Source: Zootoca vivipara (Eukaryota). Taken from it: a DNA stretch of 64,000 nt. The notes beneath the pieces were generated by a model. The model worked only from the letters and a program-made list of their open reading frames with translations. It was not told the origin of the DNA and ran no database searches. The position numbers were made by a program, and so were the translations under genes. Positions 18,371 to 48,646 of this stretch are shown piece by piece; within the stretch, counting starts at the first letter, position 1, and every line of letters starts with the position of its first letter. The stretch lies in the NCBI RefSeq assembly GCF_963506605.1, contig NC_083289.1, positions 27,962,001 to 28,026,000 on the forward strand, read 5' to 3'.

Positions 18371-19080
18371 GGCGACGACGGTACAACTTGAGACAAACTA
18401 CGGGAACTTCCTTGTCTCCTCCTCCCCACTCCCCTCGACGGGACGTCACTGTCGCCAGGCAACTCCCCCGTAGCCCCGCCCACTCCGAAAGAAGGCAGGC
18501 GGAGCCCGGCATGACCCGTTGCGGGGGTGGGGATGTCCCGGGATGCGTCGTTGCTGGGCTGGCAGACTCCGAGGCATCTCCTCCTCCGCTCACCGGCCGG
18601 CCGGTTAGGACAGGATGGATGGAGGCCCCCTCTCCCACCATTCTCCGCACCAGGTAAGCTCCGGCGGCCGGAGCCGTCGAGGGGGAATCAGCGGCGATGG
18701 CATCCCGCGCCGTGGCCAAGCCGATGATGGGCTTCCTTCCCCAGATCAGTCGACGCTGCTGCCAGTCCCGCCCGACGACCGCGACTAAGGGAAGCGCCGC
18801 CCGGGACGTGGCCACGTGGCCCACCGGCAGTCCGACGTGAGCAGGACAGCGGCGGCAGGTGACGAAGAGGAGAGAGGGATCCGGCCGGACTTCGACTGCG
18901 GGGCCCAGGAGTGGTAGGAGACTAGGAGCGGGCCGGGCTGTGTTGCTTGTGGGGCAGCGGGGAGGCTGCAGTCTGGGCCCTGGGCGGCGTCCCCTTCGGG
19001 CTTTTTCGCCAACAGAGGCTGGGGCTGGCGAGTCCCCTGTGCGTTAAGGAGCCCGAGGGGGACGCCATGGTCGAGGAGTG
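18300..19080. promoter_or_regulatory. CpG-island bidirectional promoter of CIB1 and GDPGP1
   Basis: CpG-dense and GC-rich between head-to-head genes. X-box GTCGCCAGGCAAC at 18451-18463, GACGTCA at 18442-18448, palindromic GGCCACGTGGCC (E-box core) at 18810-18821. Confidence 0.8.
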
Positions 19081-19522
19081 AAGGGCACCCACTGGCGCTG
19101 CCTGGACTCCCAGCATGAGGAGCTCCCTCAATTTCTTGTGCTTTCAGGAAATAGTACAGCCCAGCAGGGCCACAGAGCAGCAATGGGGCAGGGAGTTTCA
19201 TCCTTCGCACTGACCCAGCCTTTGCCATCCTGGTGCCTCCATATATTTTGGACTACAACTCCCATCAGCCCCCAAACATCTGGAGGGCACCAGGTTGGCG
19301 TTTGCAAAGGAAGGGCTGGTGGTGCCAGCCTCAGACTCCTCCTCCACATATGTTTGGCCGTCCAGTCCAAAGCTGAGTTACCCAGCCTAACTGCAGGCAC
19401 TGAAAGCAACCAAGAACAGCTCTCTGGGGCTTCATTGTGGCTCTCTCTAATGCGGGCTCTTCTGCCTTTCTTAGTTCTATTTCAGAGCAGCAGAGGAGCC
19501 TCCGGTTGCCTCCACCCTAACC

Positions 19523-20686
19523 ATGGAGCTTGGCCCCACCAGCCATGAACCTCCAAGACCCCCATCACAGAAGGGCTCTGATCTCTCCTTTGCAGAGGTT
19601 TTTGCTTATGACGAGAGGGACTTTGTGCTGAGTGGAGTAGAGTGGCAGGAAAACAGAGGTAATTGTGGACCCCCTGGCCACACCATGTCCCGCTTTGACA
19701 GAGTTCTTCAGTCAGGCTGGAAGGACAGACAGAACCGGGGACTCTTCCGCTACTACTTAGAGGAGCTGCAGACCAGGATCCTGCCAGGGATGGTAGGATT
19801 TGTGGCCCAGCTGAACATCCAGAGGGGGTCAGAGAGAAGGAGACCCCAGGAGATCCGAAGCATCCAGCAGAGATTTGACCCCCAGCAGTTCAACTTCAGC
19901 AAGATCCGGCCTGAGGAGATTCTCTTTGGCATGTCCAGGAGCCAGACTTCTTCCAGGCCCTGCTTGATGGATGCACAGATCCTGCCTGGCTCTGCCTTTG
20001 TGCTTGTAGTGATCAATGTCAGCCCTTTGGAGTTTGGGCACATCCTTCTCATCCCTGATCCCACACTCTCATTGCCACAGATCCTCACCCCACAGGTTGT
20101 CTGCTTTGGCCTGGATGCCGTCCTCCTCAGTGGCCATCCTGGCTTCCGTGTGGGTTTCAACAGCCTTGGGGCCTTTGCCTCGGTCAACCACTTGCACCTG
20201 CATGGCTTTTACTTGAACTGGGAGCTGCTGGTTGAATCAGCCCCCTGTGAGCCCCTCCTGCCCGAAGCAAACTTCTATCTGCTGCAGGAGGTCCCAGTTC
20301 CCTGCTTCGTCTTCTATAGCGAAGGGCAGCAGTTAGAGGAGCTGGCACAGCGTGTTTGCCAGGTCACCAACTATCTGGTAAAGAAGGAGATCGCTCACAA
20401 CCTGTTCATAACCAGGGGTGCAAAACCAGAGGGGCCTGCCCACTCAGAAACCCGACCTGGAATCCGGATCATAGTCTGGGCCAGGAAATCCTATTTTGGT
20501 ACCAAAGAAGAATCGGCATTCAATGTGGCTCTCTGCGAGCTGGCAGGGCACCTGCCCATCAAAACTGCCCAGGATTTTGAGAGTCTCACAGAAGCACTGG
20601 CCATTCACACCCTTCAGAAATGTCTCCTCCCAGACTCTCTGTTTTCCCAGCTCCAGTGTGAGCTGGTGGCCCTCCTCAAAGAGTGA
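19523..20686 (+). CDS. GDPGP1: GDP-D-glucose phosphorylase 1 (387 aa, single coding exon)
   Basis: Intronless ORF with INVSPLEFGH and the HIT-like ASVNHLHLH motif, FNVALCELAGH; sits next to CIB1 as in mammals; AATAAA at 20808-20813. Confidence 0.96.
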   Translation: MELGPTSHEPPRPPSQKGSDLSFAEVFAYDERDFVLSGVEWQENRGNCGPPGHTMSRFDRVLQSGWKDRQNRGLFRYYLEELQTRILPGMVGFVAQLNIQRGSERRRPQEIRSIQQRFDPQQFNFSKIRPEEILFGMSRSQTSSRPCLMDAQILPGSAFVLVVINVSPLEFGHILLIPDPTLSLPQILTPQVVCFGLDAVLLSGHPGFRVGFNSLGAFASVNHLHLHGFYLNWELLVESAPCEPLLPEANFYLLQEVPVPCFVFYSEGQQLEELAQRVCQVTNYLVKKEIAHNLFITRGAKPEGPAHSETRPGIRIIVWARKSYFGTKEESAFNVALCELAGHLPIKTAQDFESLTEALAIHTLQKCLLPDSLFSQLQCELVALLKE

Positions 20687-21240
20687 CCTCACAGGGATGG
20701 TTGTGCTTCTGGAAATTCTGCTAATGTGTGCCTGTTCAGTAAGGAGAGGAGGGAGACCTCGTTTACCCACAAATGCCATGGTAGGAGGACATGCAAGATT
20801 GCTGGTCAATAAAGCATAAATTCAACTGAATTCCCATCTTTGTTCTTTTGACTCACAAGCTGTAACACAATATTTGCTTTCCTTAAAGCGCTTACATGAA
20901 GTCAGACCATTTGGCTCAGTATTGTCCACCCCGGGAGTAGCCAACATAGCCAATTAAGGGAATCGTAGCCCACATCTAGGTGGGCACCACTCTTGTTACC
21001 CCTGGTCTACAAGGCCAGGTGTGAGCTCTCTAAGGTATCAGGTAGGAATCTTTCGTGGCCCCACTGGGAGATACTGTCTGGACTTGGACTAGGAATCCTG
21101 CTCTGCACTGAGCTATAGCCCCCAAGCTTGTCTTGCATAGGCTGTTTAAAAGGGACTTGTGAGTTTAGTGCAGAGGTTTCTGCTGGAGCAAGGATGCTTG
21201 GCACCTGCAGGCTTACTCCAAGAGATTACCAGTAGTTACA

Positions 21241-21306
21241 GTTAGGTAGCCGTGTTGCTCTGGCGTAGTCAAAACAAAATTTAAAAAATCCTTCCAGTAG
21301 CACCTT
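21241..21306 (-). mobile_element. Penelope-like element terminal fragment, interrupted by Bov-B
   Basis: Reverse complement AAGGTGCTACTGGAAGGATTTTT...AACACGGCTACC matches and continues the sequence that follows the hammerhead motif in the copies at 21482 and 22436. Confidence 0.6.
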
Positions 21307-21442
21307 GTTGTTGTTGTTTAGTCGTTTAGTCGTGTCCGACTCTTCGTGACCCCATGGACCAGAGCACGCCAGGCACTCCTGTCTTGCACTGCCTCCCGCA
21401 GTTTGGTCAAACTCATGTTCGTAGCTTCGAGAACACTGTCCA
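21307..21442 (-). mobile_element. Bov-B (RTE) LINE 3' end, 5'-truncated
   Basis: (GTT)n tail followed by TTTAGTCGTTTAGTCGTGTCCGACTCTTCGTGACCCCATGGAC; near-identical reverse complement of 48482-48645. Confidence 0.85.
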
Positions 21443-21477
21443 CGAGTCTCTTGGACAAAAAAAAAAAAAATATCAGT

Positions 21478-21515
21478 GTATCTGAAGAAGTGTGCATGCA
21501 GACGAAAGCTCATAC
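21478..21515 (+). ncRNA. Minimal type I hammerhead ribozyme motif (Penelope-type), copy A
   Basis: GUAU-CUGAAGA-A-GUGUGC/AU/GCAGAC-GAAA-GC-UC-AUAC. Helix I GUAU:AUAC, core CUGANGA and GAAA, loopless palindromic helix III (AGCU). Confidence 0.7.
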
Positions 21516-21600
21516 CAATGACAAACATAGCTGGTCTCTAAGGTGCTACTGAAGATGAGCCCCTCAGTAGCATCTTAGAGACCAGCTATGTTTGTCATTG

Positions 21601-21638
21601 GTATGAGCTTTCGTCTGCATGCACACTTCTTCAGATAC
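21601..21638 (-). ncRNA. Minimal type I hammerhead ribozyme motif, copy B (antisense arm of palindrome)
   Basis: Exact reverse complement of 21478-21515. Confidence 0.65.
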
Positions 21639-22435
21639 ACTGATATTTTTTTTTATTTTTTTTTGTCCAAGAGACTTGTGCATCAAACATGAGTGCTAAA
21701 CTGAATATTTGTGATCCCTAAGCATTCCCAGTTAGAGCCCCTGTCAGTGTAGACAATACTGAGCCAGATGGACCAAGGATCTAATTTGGCACATCCTTAA
21801 TTTAACATCTTCCTATATAAACAAACTGTTGCAAAAAAGTAGGGTTGTATACAACGCCATGCTAGTGAAAGCCAGGGTGGGATAAGCATGAGCCTTGGGC
21901 ACTGGTTGTAGGGATCCTGTCTTTAGACAAATGCCCTAGTATTGCCTGAGCCATCCCTGAATAACAACAGTCCTGCAGCTGTTGGTGATATTTATTTGCT
22001 CAGCACACCTTCTCCAATTAAGAACATAAGAACCTACTGGATCAGGCCAATGGCCCATCTAGTCTAGCATCCTAGATGAACATCTGTCTGTGAGAAGCTG
22101 GCAAGTAGGATTTAAGCACAAGAACAGCACTACCCCTTCTTCTTGCTTTCAGAAACTGGTATTCAGAAGCATTGCTTCCTCCGACTGTGAAGGCAGGGAA
22201 AAGCCATATTGGCTAGTAGCCATTAATGGTCCTTTCCTTGAAGAAGAGTTCTGGATAACTCTAAAGCTTGCACACTTTGGCATGATAAAGGTGATTTCGG
22301 CTTCTTTCAGGGCCACCTTTTTATTTTACATCTATCTATTTATTTAATGACGCTTTATTAAAACAAGGTCAAGCAATGTCCAGATAAACACAAGGGAAGA
22401 AGAGAGGAGAGAGAATTGGCTTTCTAAAGCGATCA

Positions 22436-22525
22436 CTGAAGAAGTGTGCATGCACACGAAAGCTCATACCAAAATAAAAACTTAGTTGGTCTTTAAGGTG
22501 CTACTGAAGGAATTTTTTCTATTTT
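22436..22525 (+). mobile_element. Penelope-like fragment beginning at a hammerhead core (copy C)
   Basis: CTGAAGAAGTGTGCATGCACACGAAAGCTCATACC...TTGGTCTTTAAGGTGCTACTGAAGGA; perfect helix II, 5' strand of helix I missing. Confidence 0.7.
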
Positions 22526-22529
22526 AAAG

Positions 22530-23370
22530 CGGTCACAGGCAGCGAGGACTGAACTGGAATCTCCCCGACCGGATATCCGCTTCCTCTCTCTCTCCCCACT
22601 GCCATGTGAGGGAAGAGACGTCCAATAGGAATGAGCAAATCCGAGACGCGCGGCTTGACGGTCCATGTAAATCGAATTACAACGCGGGCCAACGGCGAGC
22701 GAGATCCTGTTTTGCGTCACAAAGAGCAGGTCGCCAGGCGATGACGAAATGCGGAAGCGCAGTGGGAAGGAAGCGGCGCTCCATCCTTCGAACCACCCTT
22801 TATGGTTGTGGCGCTTCGCCCCACCCCTTCGTCCGCGTCCGCCCGAGGGGGCGGGGCCCGCTGTCGGCATGGTGACCGCGTCAGGGCCCGAGGCAGCCCG
22901 AGGCCCAGGCGCCGCCGCCGCCGCCGCCGCCCCAGGGAAAGCCGCGGGGCCGGTAAGGAGCCGCCAAGAGGAATGAGTGGCGGTGGGGCGAAAGAGCCCC
23001 CAGGCCCGCCGGTGGCGGCGCAGCCCTGGGGTTTCCCCCGGGCGGGCCCGGGAAGCCTCGAAGGTGCACCGCCGACCTCTCCCCCCCCCGGTGACGCCTC
23101 TAGTCCCAGCAGAAGAGGGCCGCCGAGGACCCGCCTCCTCTCAGGGTGAACCTGAGGCCGCTTTAGTGCTGTCCTACACGCCGAGTCAGTGTGTGGATGT
23201 GAATCGGTCTGGCCCCAAAGCAACCCCGGCCAGCCTGGCGCCTTGGAGCCCAGAACCGCAGCCAGAACTAATAAGTCCTCGTAGGCCCAAACACCTGGAA
23301 GGCGGCGTCAGGCTGGCTAAGGCTGCCAAAGATGGGGTCGCTGGTACCCTGCAGGTGTAGCTGGGAACAG
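22530..23370 (+). promoter_or_regulatory. CpG-island promoter and 5' exon region of TTLL13
   Basis: CpG-rich, CCAAT at 22622, GC box GGGGCGGGG near 22848, X-box-like GTCGCCAGGCGAT at 22730-22742, strong donor CCG|GTAAGG at 22952/22953. Confidence 0.75.
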
Positions 23371-24952: not shown

Positions 24953-27900
24953 ATGAAGATCAATACAGACGAAAGTAGTGAGTCTGAGAACGAAACTGAT
25001 GAAGACGAAGATGAGGATGACGAAGGGGCCCTGTCAGATGAGTCTGCCAATGAATGCCTTAAGAGGCTTGATGCAGAAAACAAGGACAAGCAGCGAACCC
25101 AGGGCCAAGGGTACAAAGGCACTAGGCCACCAGGGGAGAAGAATGACCAGCCGAGTGTCTCCCTGATCGATTTGGAGGAGCAACTGGCAGAAGAATGTGA
25201 GCTGGAAGAGACAACGAGGAGGAAGAAGAAGAAACACAGGTGGGCCACTTCTGGGTTTCCCCCTTGTGAATCTCTTCAGGGCAAGCTGTGCAGTTTCCAT
25301 TCACACTTAGGAGTGCAGACACCACCGCTGTTGGAATCCCACAGTTCTCTACTTTGGCCCCCCAAGTCATTGTGTTCTGTGCCCCAAGGGTCAAGGCCTG
25401 GTGGGTTGGCCCCATGTTTCCATAGGCATTTCCCCTCCCAGCTTGTCAGCTCAAGGTTTGCTCTCCCCAGCTGCTGAGCCACTGTTCCATCTCAATTCCA
25501 GGCTGCTGTCCATCAACCTCGCCAGCTGCAAATATGAGAGTGGTAAGTTAGGGTTGCTTCTTGGTGGCTTTCTCCTGTACCCTGAGAGCATCATCACATG
25601 GGCCCTGGTTATTGCTTGGTCTCCTGAATTGGCTTTATGCCACTCACAGGAAGGAACCAACAGCAGTCAGGGTGACTCCAGGCAGCTTCTGAATTGGTTG
25701 GGCTAGGGGATCTGTGAGGCACCTGCATTAGGATAGAAGTTCCCAGGGTCACTTTTGTTTTGGAGGGTTGCTCCCCCCCCCGCGCCCGCCAGAGGGGTGA
25801 CTCCTGCTGTTCAGATGGTAGCTGCGCTCCCGCTGCCACATGCAAGATCCAGAGGGGTTCCAGTGCCTCTTGGATCCATGTGGCACTCTTTCTTTTGCTG
25901 CAGTTAGGCGTGCTGCTCGACGCTGTGGTTTGAAAGAAGTGGGGGAGGACGAGGAGTGGACCGTTTGCTGGACTGACTGCTCGGTCTCCCTGGAGCGTGT
26001 CATGGAAATGAAGAGGTTTCAGGTAGCTGGAGCAGAGCCAGAAGGGAGGGAGCTGTGGCTGGCAGGCAGGTTGGAGTCGGGAAGGGAGATAGCTAGTCTC
26101 TGACATGTCACAGCACTTTTGATCTCTTACGCTGCCTCAGGCAGTTCTGGGATTTGAGTGGCTTGTGCCCCTCTGCTGGGGCAAGCCCCTGGTGTCAATC
26201 AGCACATTTGTCCATGGGCATAGCCAGGATGTTTGTTAGTGGGAGCAGAACTTCAGTTGGCTACTGATTTTTATTGATGAGGGGGGCAACTGCCCATGCA
26301 TCTGTCCGATTAAGCTCTGGCTCTTCCATGGCTTTGCCACTACCAGGAGGGCATGTCTGTGTGCACTCCACTGCCTTGCTCTGATCCAAATTATCACAAG
26401 GAGAGGGTGGTGGGCAAGGTCTGGCTGCAACCCCTCCTAGACAGACACTGCTTAGCCACAAATTAGACTACCAATGGCAAAGCATTGTTAGACGGGCTCC
26501 CTTTACTTGCAACCTTTGCTTGGTACAGCAGCTAGATTGTAAACATTTATGTTGTGAACTGTCCTGAGATCTTCAGATGGAGGGTGACATATAGATTTAA
26601 TAAATAAATAAAAATAAACCAACCACTTGCAAAATATCCTGCCATCAGCATCTGCTGCACTGGTTCCTGTGTATTTCTGAGTTCAATTCAAAGTGTTGGT
26701 TTTTATGATTGATTGTACTCAGTTTTAATATGGAAGCTTTCTAGGGAATCCTACAAGAAAATTCCCCAGGCAGTTTCTACATTAAAATGGATATTGGAAG
26801 GTGGTGTAAAAAATACCCTAAACAAACAGCAACACTCCTTTCCAGAGGTGCTGGTGATTCTCTTCCTCTGTCCCTGCTCTATTTTCAGAAAATCAACCAC
26901 TTCCCAGGCATGGCAGAGATCTGCCGCAAGGACCTGCTTGCCCGCAACCTCAACCGCATGCTTAAGCTCTTTCCCAAGGAGTACAGCATCTTCCCACGCA
27001 CCTGGTGCCTGCCAGCTGAGTGAGTGAGGGGACTCTGATCCAAGTAGTGGTGCTGGGGGAAGGGCAAGCAGTGGGCCACTGTTGAGGAGGGGCTTCTATC
27101 ACTTAGTCACCCTATGCCAGTTCTGGAGCACACACATGCACCCTCATGCACCAAGAACAATTCCTGCCACTGGCTTGAGGGCACCCTTTGTGGAATCTCC
27201 CATATGCCAGCTTTTGTGTTGTCCCTTTATAGCTATGGGGACTTCCAAGCCTATGGGCGCATGAGAAAGAACAGAACTTACATCTGCAAGCCAGATAGCG
27301 GCTGCCAAGGACGGGGCATCTTCATCACACGCAATCCCAAGGAGATCAAGCACGGCGAGCACATGATCTGCCAGCAGTACATTGCCAAGGTGGGCCTGGT
27401 GGACACTGAGAGAGAATTGCCTCCCTTTGCCTAAATGCACAACTCCTGCCCTCTTAGCATAGCTGGTTGAGAAAGCTGGCCTTGCCTGGGGATATTTGGT
27501 GCAAGACTCCTGAGCTTACTGGCTGTCTGCCCCTGACCATCAATCACAGACCCACCCCTCTCTCTGCAGCCCTTCCTCATTGATGGCTTCAAGTTTGACA
27601 TGCGCATCTACGTCCTGGTCACCTCCTGCGACCCACTGAAGATCTTTGTCTATGAGGAGGGGCTCGCCCGCTTTGCCACCATGAGGTACATCGAGCCCAG
27701 CAGCAGCAACCTGGTAAAGAAGGGATGTTTCCCAGGAACTGGCATTTGCTTTGTAGAATAATAAGTTGTTGTGGTGCCTGATGTGATTTCTGGGAGCTCT
27801 CCAAGAGGGGGTGGATGGATGTAGTGTCCCTGTGGCACTTTGCAAGTGAAAGGTCAACCCAGATCAATGGAGTCTTGCTTGAGAGATGCTGTCAGGAAAA

Positions 27901-30900
27901 TGAACTGCCCTCCTTGCATCCCATGACAGACAGCACTGAGACATGTGGGCAAGAGGGTTCTGGCGCTGCTCAGGCAGGACTGATGAATGCTGTTGGTCCA
28001 GGGAACCTAGGCAGGAAGGGAACAGGCCTCCAGGTGCGGACAGTAAACCCTTCCACTGTCTCTCTTGCAGGAAGACATATGTATGCACCTGACCAACTAC
28101 GCCATCAACAAGCATAACGAGAACTTTGTGCGTGATGACAATACAGGCAGCAAGAGGTATTTTCCTTGCCAAGCCCCCTGCAGGAGCAGAGCTGGGCCTT
28201 CTGCTTGGGGGCAGCTACCTTCTGCTAAAGTGACTGCTTAGATGGGCAGAGGCAGCTGGAAGCAATGCAAGCTGGAAGGACAGTGCAGGGTGGGGGACAA
28301 TGTACGGGTTCAGGTTTCCTCTTAGCCAGAAACTTATCCAAGACCATCAGTATTATGGAGGAGGGGTAGAGGGTACACATTTTATATGGAGAAGATCCCA
28401 TGTTCAATCTCTGGTAGCATCTCCAACTAAAAAAAATGGCTGAAAGCAGGAAGGGTCTTAATGCTTGTTTGGAAATATGCCCTGCCGAAAGGAGACTGTC
28501 CTGATATTCTTGCTAAGCCCCTTTCTTTGTGGTTGTGGGGATCAGGGTTTGGGGTTTGGCCACCCTCAGGAGCAGAGTCTGGCCTTGACATCCCTGCAGC
28601 CCATTTTCCTCCCCATAGGAAGCTGTCCACGCTGAACAGCTGGATGCGGGAGCACAGCTATGATACGGCCGAGCTGTGGCGGGACATTGAGGACATCATC
28701 ATCAAGACCCTCATTGCTGCCCACCCAGTGCTGAAGCACAATTACCGCACCTGCTTCCCCAATCACATATCAGGCTGCGCTTGCTTTGAGATCCTAGGCT
28801 TCGACATCCTCCTGGACAGGAAGCTCAAGCCTTGGCTCTTGGAGGTACGTGGGGTGCTGTTGTCCTTCTGAAGCAGAATTCCCAATGGCAGCCTGCACTA
28901 CTTCTCTTCAGCAAGACCCTTCAATCTCTGCAATTCAATGATTCTAATCCCAGGAACACTCTCAGACCTCTCTTCAACACTCTTTTGTTCTCGATCCCAA
29001 CAAAGTCTGGGAAGAGTCTCAAACTCTTCCTCAATAGTTCCTTCTCCCCGATCCAGCTAGTCTCCAACACTCAGTGGTAGATGGTAGATACAAGTAAGTC
29101 CCAGGTTCAATCCAAGTAGGGTTGAGAGAGAGAGACTCCTCTCTCCTGTCTGAAACCCTGGAGAGCTGCTGCCAGTCAGTGTAGACAATATTGAGTTAGA
29201 TGGACAAAGGGTCTGACTGGGTATAAGGCAGCTTCCTTTGTTCCTATGTCTACTCTTTTGTATCTTGAAAGAAGCAGGAAAGATGTCTAAATACCTTGGA
29301 AGTCAGAGGTGAGGTGGGGTGGGTATCTTCAGACAATAGTAACACAAACTGGCACATGAAACTGAATCAGAATGCTTCCAGATCTGAATTAAAATTGTCA
29401 ATCCTGATTGGCTGCAAATGTCAAACTTCTCCCCACACCCTCCAAGGTATGCCATCCTGTTGTTCATTCCCAGTCGAGCCACTTCAGGCCCCTGGGGAAC
29501 ACGTTCCGTCTCCCTGAAACACCCATGTGATCCTGACTGCTCCAGTGTTTTACTACACGCTACCTAACTAGCTGCAACTGTATACAAAAAACTGCAAACT
29601 CTTTCTTGAGAAAAACTAAGCATCAGAATAGATGCCTCTGTCCTGAAGGAGTGGAGGTCCCGAAGTCTCATGGGCCAAACCAGATCCCAGAGTGGCTACC
29701 TTGTAAGAAGCTGCATGTAAAACCCAGGCCATTCTCCATTGCTCTTTCCCCTCCAGGTCAACCACTCCCCCAGCTTCACCACTGACTCCCGCCTGGACCG
29801 TGAAGTGAAGGATGCCCTGCTCTGCGATGCCATCAACCTTATCAACCTGCGTGCTTGTGACAAGAAGAAGGTGCTAGAAGAGGACAAGCGGCGGGTGAAG
29901 GAGCGCCTCCTCCAAGCCCACCAGCCGCCCCGAGAAGCCAGGTAACCCTGGGAGGGGCCCAGCCTGACTGTGGCTGTACTAAGTGCCTCCCTTGTCCTGG
30001 CCATGCTGCCTCCTTCTCCCCCAGAAGCAGCTTTTCCTGGCTTTGCCTTCAGAGACGCCCAACACCCAGTCCCCACAGCCTTGTCAGGTTGCATGTTAGC
30101 CTCCAACCACCATGAGGGAGGGGAGAAAATGGAGCAAGGTGCTAATCAGATGGGTTTGCGTTTATTTCTCTGGTCGTGTAATGGGCCATGAGGCAGTGCA
30201 GGAGTCCTGGGTCCTGGCATGTGGGTCATTGGTTGCCTTGGCAGAAGCTGTGCAACACCCCATGCAGACAAGGTGGGGGAGCAGGGGGGAAGAGAGGGAG
30301 GAAAATGGCTTGGGTACCAGTGACAGGGGAGGCCAAGGGGGGGGGGACTCAGAGGACAGCAGTGCCCATTAGTCTCTCCCTCCCCGGCAGAACCTAGGAT
30401 TTCTCTACTGCCGGGGCCCCAGCCTGAACTCTCTCGATCTGCAGGCGGGAGCAGTTGGAGAGCAGTCAGGCTGCCTGGCTGGCCCAGGCCGAGAAGTACG
30501 AGAGCAGCCACCTGGGTGGCTACCGAAAGATCTTCCCATCGCGGGGCACAGAGAAGTACACCCCTTTCTTCAAGCACAGTGGATCCCTCTTCCAAGAGAC
30601 CGTGGCCTCCAAGGCCAGGGAAGAGTGTGCCAGGTAGGGCAAGCGGAAGCCGTTCCTCACAAGGCAGGCTGAGCCAGGCCTAGTCCTTGCATGTACACAC
30701 ATATGGACATGCAAAAGGATGACATACCGACACGCCGTGTCTTGTGTCTTCTGTCAGGCAACAGCTGGAGGAGATTCGCCAGAAGCAGGAGCAGAGGGAG
30801 AGCACAGCTGCAAAGAAGAAGAGGGACGTGAAGGAGAACTTGCAGGGGGAGTCAGCAGGGGAGAAGGGGAAGGGCAAGCCAGCCCTCACTCGCATAGCCT

Positions 30901-48300: not shown

Positions 48301-48591
48301 CATCCGCGACAGCATCAGCTTCATTGAAGAGCACATTGACCGACAGGTAAGGGGTGGGGAGAAAATGCACTGACCTCAATTGGCGTCCGGGTTCACCAGA
48401 CAATGTAATCAGGAGCAGAAATCCACTCCCCTAAAAGGAAAGGTTTCAGTTTACTGTTATTCAGTAACATAGTCCCCACATTTGAAGCTACGAACATGAG
48501 TTTGACCAAACTGCGGGAGGCAGTGGAAGACAGGAGTGCCTGGCGTGCTATGGTCCATGGGGTCACGAAGAGTCAGACACGACTAAACGAC

Positions 48592-48646
<55 letters not shown>

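Follow-up and report, generated by a model that had tools for sequence, protein, structure and literature searches.

The three hammerhead motifs between GDPGP1 and a downstream TTL-family gene are, with high probability, minimal hammerheads carried on end fragments of a Penelope-like element (PLE), likely left by three insertion events and predicted to be inert at this locus. The motifs (A, B and C) lie in a 64,000-nt stretch of the Zootoca vivipara genome, which is referred to here as the window and to which all positions refer. The cluster itself looks like an accident of those three insertions. The locus is one of about 40,000 core-bearing fragments in the genome and so is of little importance in itself.

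The motifs and the element family that carries them

The positions and strands given for the motifs by an earlier sequence-only reading agreed base by base with the sequence (Table 1). The core CUGANGA, GAAA and a UH cut site are present in A, B and C, arranged in the order CUGAAGA, one extra A, a five-pair stem II, GAA, AGCU, C17 and AUAC. The extra A lies between A9 and G10.1, and each motif has the G10.1-C11.1 pair. The sequence also agrees with the earlier description of helix III as a loop-less AGCU palindrome (15.2-16.2, no loop III, in all three motifs), of helix I in A and B as the 4-bp GUAU:AUAC, and of the cut sites in A and C, with C17 falling at 21511 and 22465. In C, as had been stated, the 5' strand of helix I is missing: the motif begins at the core, AUCA stands where A and B have GUAU, and the 4-5 bp of helix I are not found. 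Judged by these sequence features, A and B qualify as PLE minimal hammerheads and C as a truncated one. The catalytic core, G10.1-C11.1 and AGCU are undamaged in all three, which counts against inertness. A G-G mismatch occupies the third pair of stem II in A; it had been reported for A, but the 38 nt of A and B do not differ anywhere, so it is common to both.

Within the window, a loose core pattern was found close to the frequency expected by chance (16 found against 11.2 expected). The Infernal-type check that had been proposed gave no support, as the Rfam hammerhead models matched neither the window nor an intact family copy, at gathering score or at E up to 10. Rfam microRNA matches were rejected, being far under their gathering scores and reflecting only the hairpin formed by A and B.

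It was the genome-wide context that bore out the proposed identity of the motifs as minimal type I hammerheads of Penelope type. In the 1.44-Gb assembly over which genome-wide counts were taken, the 34-nt sequence of motif C occurs 17,230 times without a mismatch, whereas the reversed control has 0 copies, and the motif sequence is therefore not a product of chance. The motifs are the minimal hammerhead of the pLTR (end repeat) of an abundant PLE. Full copies consist of a hammerhead, an ORF with reverse transcriptase (RT) and GIY-YIG domains, and a second hammerhead, the two being 3.0 kb apart. In one such copy (L082), a motif, a 925-codon frame and a motif follow one another with a period of 3002 nt, accompanied by an inverted copy on the 5' side; its single ORF matches RVT_1 (6.5e-12) and, C-terminally, GIY-YIG (4.8e-5). 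Several other tandems of the family are spaced 3030 nt, and partial tandems that form pLTRs occur with an inverted 5'-truncated copy in L081, L082 and L090. In L024, the sequence continues upstream of the motif into the GIY-YIG frame. The motif was found on the ORF strand beyond the ORF 3' end in nine of the ten long loci examined (about 1 kb beyond in L083), and no motif was found in the remaining one, L085.

The L082 protein has a CX4CxxC linker before the endonuclease (residue 761), which falls within the pattern CX2-5CxxC that is described in PMC8557442 as a mark of Neptune and Nematis and not of Poseidon. By its predicted protein sequence the family carries a linker of the Neptune/Nematis type. 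Stop-free frames of at least 922 codons were present in 66 of the first 82 among 150 scored copies; the family looks recently active, and its protein is plausibly present in the host.

Fragment statistics were drawn from a 600-kb sample taken at round coordinates, in which 34 rows represent 33 fragments, one being split at the border. The whole core was present in 17 of the 34 rows and the exact motif in 7, and the genome-wide figure of about 40,000 core-bearing fragments is extrapolated from those 17. Fragment 3' ends lie mostly at +48 to +70 and +92 to +104 from the cut site. The 5' ends gather at -34 to -30 (7 of 34 rows), which is the start of helix I; this pile may reflect a transcript start, a splice site or the limits of alignment between subfamilies. 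Copy ends do not pile up at the cut site: none of 30 ORF-bearing copies starts at cut+1, and among the 34 sampled rows none starts at +1 (one starts at +2) and none ends at 0. This resembles the RNA-seq of PAc, the Poseidon element of Anolis carolinensis, for which the account in PMC11167929 gives no ends at the cut site. Among the 100 listed variants of stem II position 4 (170 in total), 2 restore the pair and the others are one-sided, as expected of decaying copies.

Several further features of the family were observed. Stem II of the common motif (22444-22457 in C) is a perfect 14-nt palindrome, and some inverted motif pairs in the 600-kb sample join at this palindrome (-21 ends). One copy of the PLE, L023, harbours a nested C-type end, about 90 nt long and flanked by 11 nt in near-duplicate, some 640-560 nt upstream of the L023 motif.

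Table 1. Features of the locus, in window coordinates
Feature	Position	Strand	Details
GDPGP1 coding exon	19475-20686	+	stop-to-stop frame 403 aa, Met at 19523
First AATAAA past the GDPGP1 stop	20808-20813	+	
9-nt direct repeat, left copy	21217-21225		candidate target duplication of the older PLE insertion (B+D)
Fragment D, PLE 3' remainder without motif	21233-21306	-	+29 to +102 from the cut site
12-bp target duplication of the RTE insertion, left	21295-21306		
RTE/BovB-like LINE 3' end (presumed name)	21307-21443	-	5'-truncated, (CAA)n tail; ~99% identity to other copies
Arm A, 111-nt inverted copy of 21565-21680	21441-21551	+	PLE end, poly(A) run, unique flank
Hammerhead motif A	21478-21515	+	core 21482-21488; stem II 21490-21503 with G-G mismatch; C17 = 21511
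13-nt filler (hairpin loop)	21552-21564		
Fragment B, apparent 5' part of the older PLE end	21565-21643	-	-38 to +40 from the cut
12-bp target duplication of the RTE insertion, right	21565-21576		11/12 identical
Hammerhead motif B	21601-21638	-	inside fragment B (21565-21643)
9-nt direct repeat, right copy	21666-21674		
ATTAAA	22357-22362	+	possible distal poly(A) signal upstream of C
Target duplication of C, 12 bp	22425-22436 (left), 22525-22536 (right)		11/12 identical
Fragment C, separate PLE end	22436-22526	+	-29 to +60; 98.9% to L087; cut off just before the core
Hammerhead motif C	22436-22469	+	C17 = 22465; within fragment C
CpG-rich stretch upstream of the TTL-family gene	22601-23200		CpG o/e 0.72-1.31

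Architecture and proposed history of the cluster

Read along the minus strand, the A/B side of the cluster consists of B, the 13-nt filler, the 111-nt A, a 137-nt RTE 3' end with its (CAA)n tail, and D. B and D overlap by 12 nt, and this overlap is the duplicated target of the RTE; B and D look like one minus-strand PLE end that was split by the LINE. The 12-bp duplications flank the RTE and arm A as a single unit, and the homology to other RTE copies stops at 21443, giving a 3-nt overlap with arm A. A 9-nt direct repeat further out is only tentatively a target duplication of the older PLE insertion, as it is not flush with the element ends.

The LINE, which we take to be of RTE/BovB type, has the features of such an element: longer copies have an RT upstream (RVT_1 in L047, 2.8e-41), and the short-repeat tail and target duplication are present. 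A second RTE 3' fragment lies at 48484-48607 of the window and is 97.6% identical to 21305-21428. An allele empty of the RTE and arm was sought and not seen; repeat contigs crowded out the joint rows, and the contigs from two related species leave the window sequence at 21110.

Arm A and the B side form a long inverted repeat in which 109 of 111 aligned positions match. Because arm A extends into flank that is not PLE sequence, its template was genomic DNA. Over the whole genome, exact copies of the stem II variant shared by A and B number 22, these two included, against 17,230 of the common form; such a rare variant in both motifs indicates that one was copied from the other. On this sequence evidence, A is likely an inverted copy of B and its flank, made at the RTE 5' junction.

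Similar junctions occur elsewhere. The (CAA)n tail is joined to this same pLTR site (+29) at 84 genome sites (window 21295-21315, minus strand; L153 3713-3968), whereas a hand estimate for uniform insertion, which is based on 29,749 RTE ends and some 67,000 sites (scaled up from 28 rows of the 600-kb sample) and disregards the sequence preference of the RTE itself, gives about 0.7. An RTE end was present in all 30 sites examined (L181-L210). In 22 of these the 5' PLE part lies on the same strand just upstream; the remaining junctions have an inverted PLE piece (3), no PLE part (2) or one further away (1), or run beyond the sequence examined and could not be resolved (2). The fold-back layout itself recurs in L184 (1500-1780, minus strand), with a 32-nt copy of the flank at the RTE 5' junction. 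The loop in L184 resembles inverted RTE sequence, and in L201 the flank at the RTE junction is duplicated directly, not folded back.

Fragment C belongs to a different subfamily from B+D (98.9% to L087). In runs of two related species, whose contigs were matched by depth value with the joint row not shown, the contig that reaches 22413 has only 107 or 112 further letters, yet covers 22548. As 22548 lies 135 letters past 22413, those contigs lack part of the stretch that holds C, and C is apparently absent in both species. The contigs of two other samples of the organism from which the window comes run into C and D, so both fragments are present there. The interval separating B from C also holds short stretches of further high-copy repeats, at 21743-21776 and 22028-22154.

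From the observed RTE fragment, target duplications and inverted arm, we infer the following order of events. A PLE end (B+D) would have inserted on the minus strand and acquired its private change in stem II. An RTE LINE would then have inserted into B+D at the pLTR site (+29/+40); during repair, the free target end may have folded back at the RTE 5' junction and copied 111 nt of upstream DNA to give A, with the arm being linked to the RTE via the 3-nt microhomology. The unrelated PLE end C would have inserted 0.76 kb away as a third step. The fold-back is proposed by analogy to L1 (PMC11702581).

The clustering of the motifs is not special to this locus. Among the first 100 exact copies listed, 29 have a neighbouring motif within 1 kb (10 on the same strand and 25 on the opposite strand). 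Adjacent opposite-strand pairs among the listed copies are head to head in 12 of 13 cases and tail to tail in 1; the tail-to-tail layout of A and B is thus uncommon, and it is accounted for by the RTE event.

Transcription, folding and the alternative readings

The GDPGP1 coding exon was identified by Atlas with near-complete confidence, and Pfam profiles gave no match to its frame. The exons of the TTL-family gene lie downstream on the plus strand at 26880-28850. The name TTLL13, given by the sequence-only reading, is presumed from synteny.

One sequencing run (X11, RNA by guess) is spliced at 18924/19474, with an empty GDPGP1 intron bin. Its contigs cover 20813-21299 and 21617-22262 at a depth of about 7, compared with 12.5-22 in the coding exon, so that depth beyond the AATAAA is about a third to half of that in the coding exon. 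These contigs make a long GDPGP1 3' UTR containing the hairpin possible; the hairpin region may be transcribed, and the ATTAAA at 22357 could end such a UTR before C. Three RNA runs (X21-X23, about 6% of each) are patchy over the GDPGP1 coding exon; under this thin cover the unique bins 20763-21215, 21820-21970 and 22122-22423 have zero depth, which is not taken as a sign of silence. The reads that pile up over A, B, C and the RTE stem from other copies, since 91-93% of them continue unlike the locus, and read starts near 21598-21605 carry the common base at 21615 and therefore also derive from other copies.

When 21430-22500 was folded with ViennaRNA, all of A was predicted to pair with B, and the two would form one long duplex in RNA of either strand (-197 kcal/mol for 21430-21690). 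Forcing the active A+C pairs in the same region costs 78.0 kcal/mol, an energy that, like the others here, covers secondary structure only and ignores tertiary contacts, help from proteins and folding kinetics. As an isolated half-dimer, A+C reaches -10.2, where two monomers score -10.7; folded freely as two strands, A and C prefer an inactive form in which the stem II palindromes are paired (-26.7 kcal/mol). C, being cut off at the core, is predicted to be unable to serve as an enzyme strand, and the motifs are predicted not to cut the RNA of the neighbouring gene.

These predictions bear on the proposal that the catalytic strand of A and the substrate strand of C cut after 22465 in read-through RNA and shield the downstream promoter, with the A/B hairpin as an off-state. 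Its topology is valid (4 bp in helix I and 4 bp in helix III), the cores are intact and on the same strand, X11 may include read-through, and dimers of such motifs show cleavage in vitro (PMC4209133; PMC6765202), although the same sources describe their activity as low even then. However, a working dimer is disfavoured by the 78 kcal/mol penalty and by the absence of any gain over the monomers in the half-dimer. Transcription would also reach B only 13 nt beyond arm A, some 800 nt before it came to C, A has its mismatch in the third stem II pair, and C seems to be missing from two related species. Same-strand neighbours closer than 1 kb occur in 10 of the 100 listed copies anyway. Neither a working dimer nor an off-switch is supported: A is a probable by-product of inverted copying of B DNA, and the 111-bp duplex is predicted to sequester it in any transcript long enough to include C. 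A regulatory dimer is therefore highly improbable, and the alternative allowed by the sequence-only reading, that the motifs are inert fossils, is the better one given the predicted duplex and the insertion history. In the anole, the account in PMC11167929 has the PAc hammerhead cutting only in the presence of the element's protein, and insertion in vitro not needing the hammerhead.

It could also be supposed that the motifs are inert as ribozymes and that the 111-bp A/B hairpin acts as double-stranded RNA in a long GDPGP1 3' UTR, through editing, retention, decay or small RNAs against the active PLE family. The X11 contigs on both sides of the hairpin, the empty intron bin, the ATTAAA and the stability of the predicted duplex are in keeping with this. 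The coverage, however, comes from a single run, as contigs of unknown strand of which none spans the hairpin, and no A>G difference is listed on the X11 contig over 21617-21680. The hairpin is also young, and the repeat often forms inverted pairs (25 of 100 listed copies). Such a role is unlikely, as is the possibility that the hairpin, by matching the pLTR of the active family with its tens of thousands of copies, ties GDPGP1 output to silencing or alters GDPGP1 expression.

Long palindromes can be misassembled, and none of the reads was shown to cross the RTE/arm junction; the A/B palindrome might be an assembly artefact. The arms are not identical, though, since two sites and the length of the poly(A) run differ between them. 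Where the duplication in B differs, A has the family base, and X11 has the base of A at 21677, in the right flank. Nor does the palindrome resemble an ordinary inverted PLE insertion, frequent as inverted copies are in these elements (PMC8557442): of 13 adjacent opposite-strand pairs 12 have the ordinary head-to-head layout, whereas A and B are tail to tail and include flank that is not PLE sequence. The same layout in L184, which is another locus, argues against both explanations, and it is very doubtful that either is correct.

Meaning and comparison with known systems

The locus serves as a warning that nested insertions can readily produce clusters of minimal hammerheads near genes. Of greater use than the locus is the family, in which dozens of ORFs are intact, the motif is uniform and lies upstream of the start codon, and the linker is of the Neptune/Nematis type. 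Because RTE elements have inserted repeatedly at a single pLTR position, these junctions provide many natural replicates for studying LINE target choice and 5'-junction repair. Among the papers listed by the literature searches, none on hammerheads at the GDPGP1/TTLL13 locus was found; the supplements of PMC4209133 and PMC11167929 may list the family or a close reptile relative.

The closest likeness is to the minimal hammerheads of metazoan PLEs described in PMC4209133, which share the common core, the extra base between 9 and 10.1, the G10.1-C11.1 pair, the loop-less palindromic helix III and the 4-bp helix I, and flank an ORF with RT and GIY-YIG as a pair spaced by about 3 kb. Most of those motifs are likewise dispersed truncated copies, numbering thousands, and that account also describes motifs dispersed singly, pairs on opposite strands separated by 100-700 bp, and reptile motifs related to these. 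The present family differs from them in being very uniform (17,230 exact copies) and in having a perfect 14-nt palindrome as stem II, and the A/B pair differs in being tail to tail and in apparently stemming from an RTE insertion.

Non-LTR retrozymes (PMC7761336; bioRxiv 10.64898/2026.07.22.740005) also bear hammerheads and are related to PLEs, but they are described as tandem units; a retrozyme identity was rejected for the locus, which has no tandem array of hammerhead-bearing units. Elsewhere in the genome, four exact motifs lie in tandem with 598-nt spacing (G000:C1:2777825-2779652), possibly a retrozyme-like array.

The A/B side resembles the L1 5'-junction inversions and templated copies of PMC11702581 in its 5'-truncated LINE, target duplication, microhomology and copied adjacent DNA. 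Unlike those cases, it involves an RTE-type LINE in a germ-line genome, and the mechanism proposed here is argued from the end product.

Alongside PAc, the family makes a second reptile-type system in which to study the in vivo role of PLE hammerheads. The two elements are alike in having a pLTR hammerhead, tandems and insertions that end downstream of an uncut motif (PMC11167929). PAc is a Poseidon element, whereas the present one has the CX4CxxC linker that PMC8557442 treats as a mark of Neptune and Nematis; and while the PAc cut is placed 26 nt inside the ORF (PMC11167929), that of the present family lies 103 nt before the first ATG.
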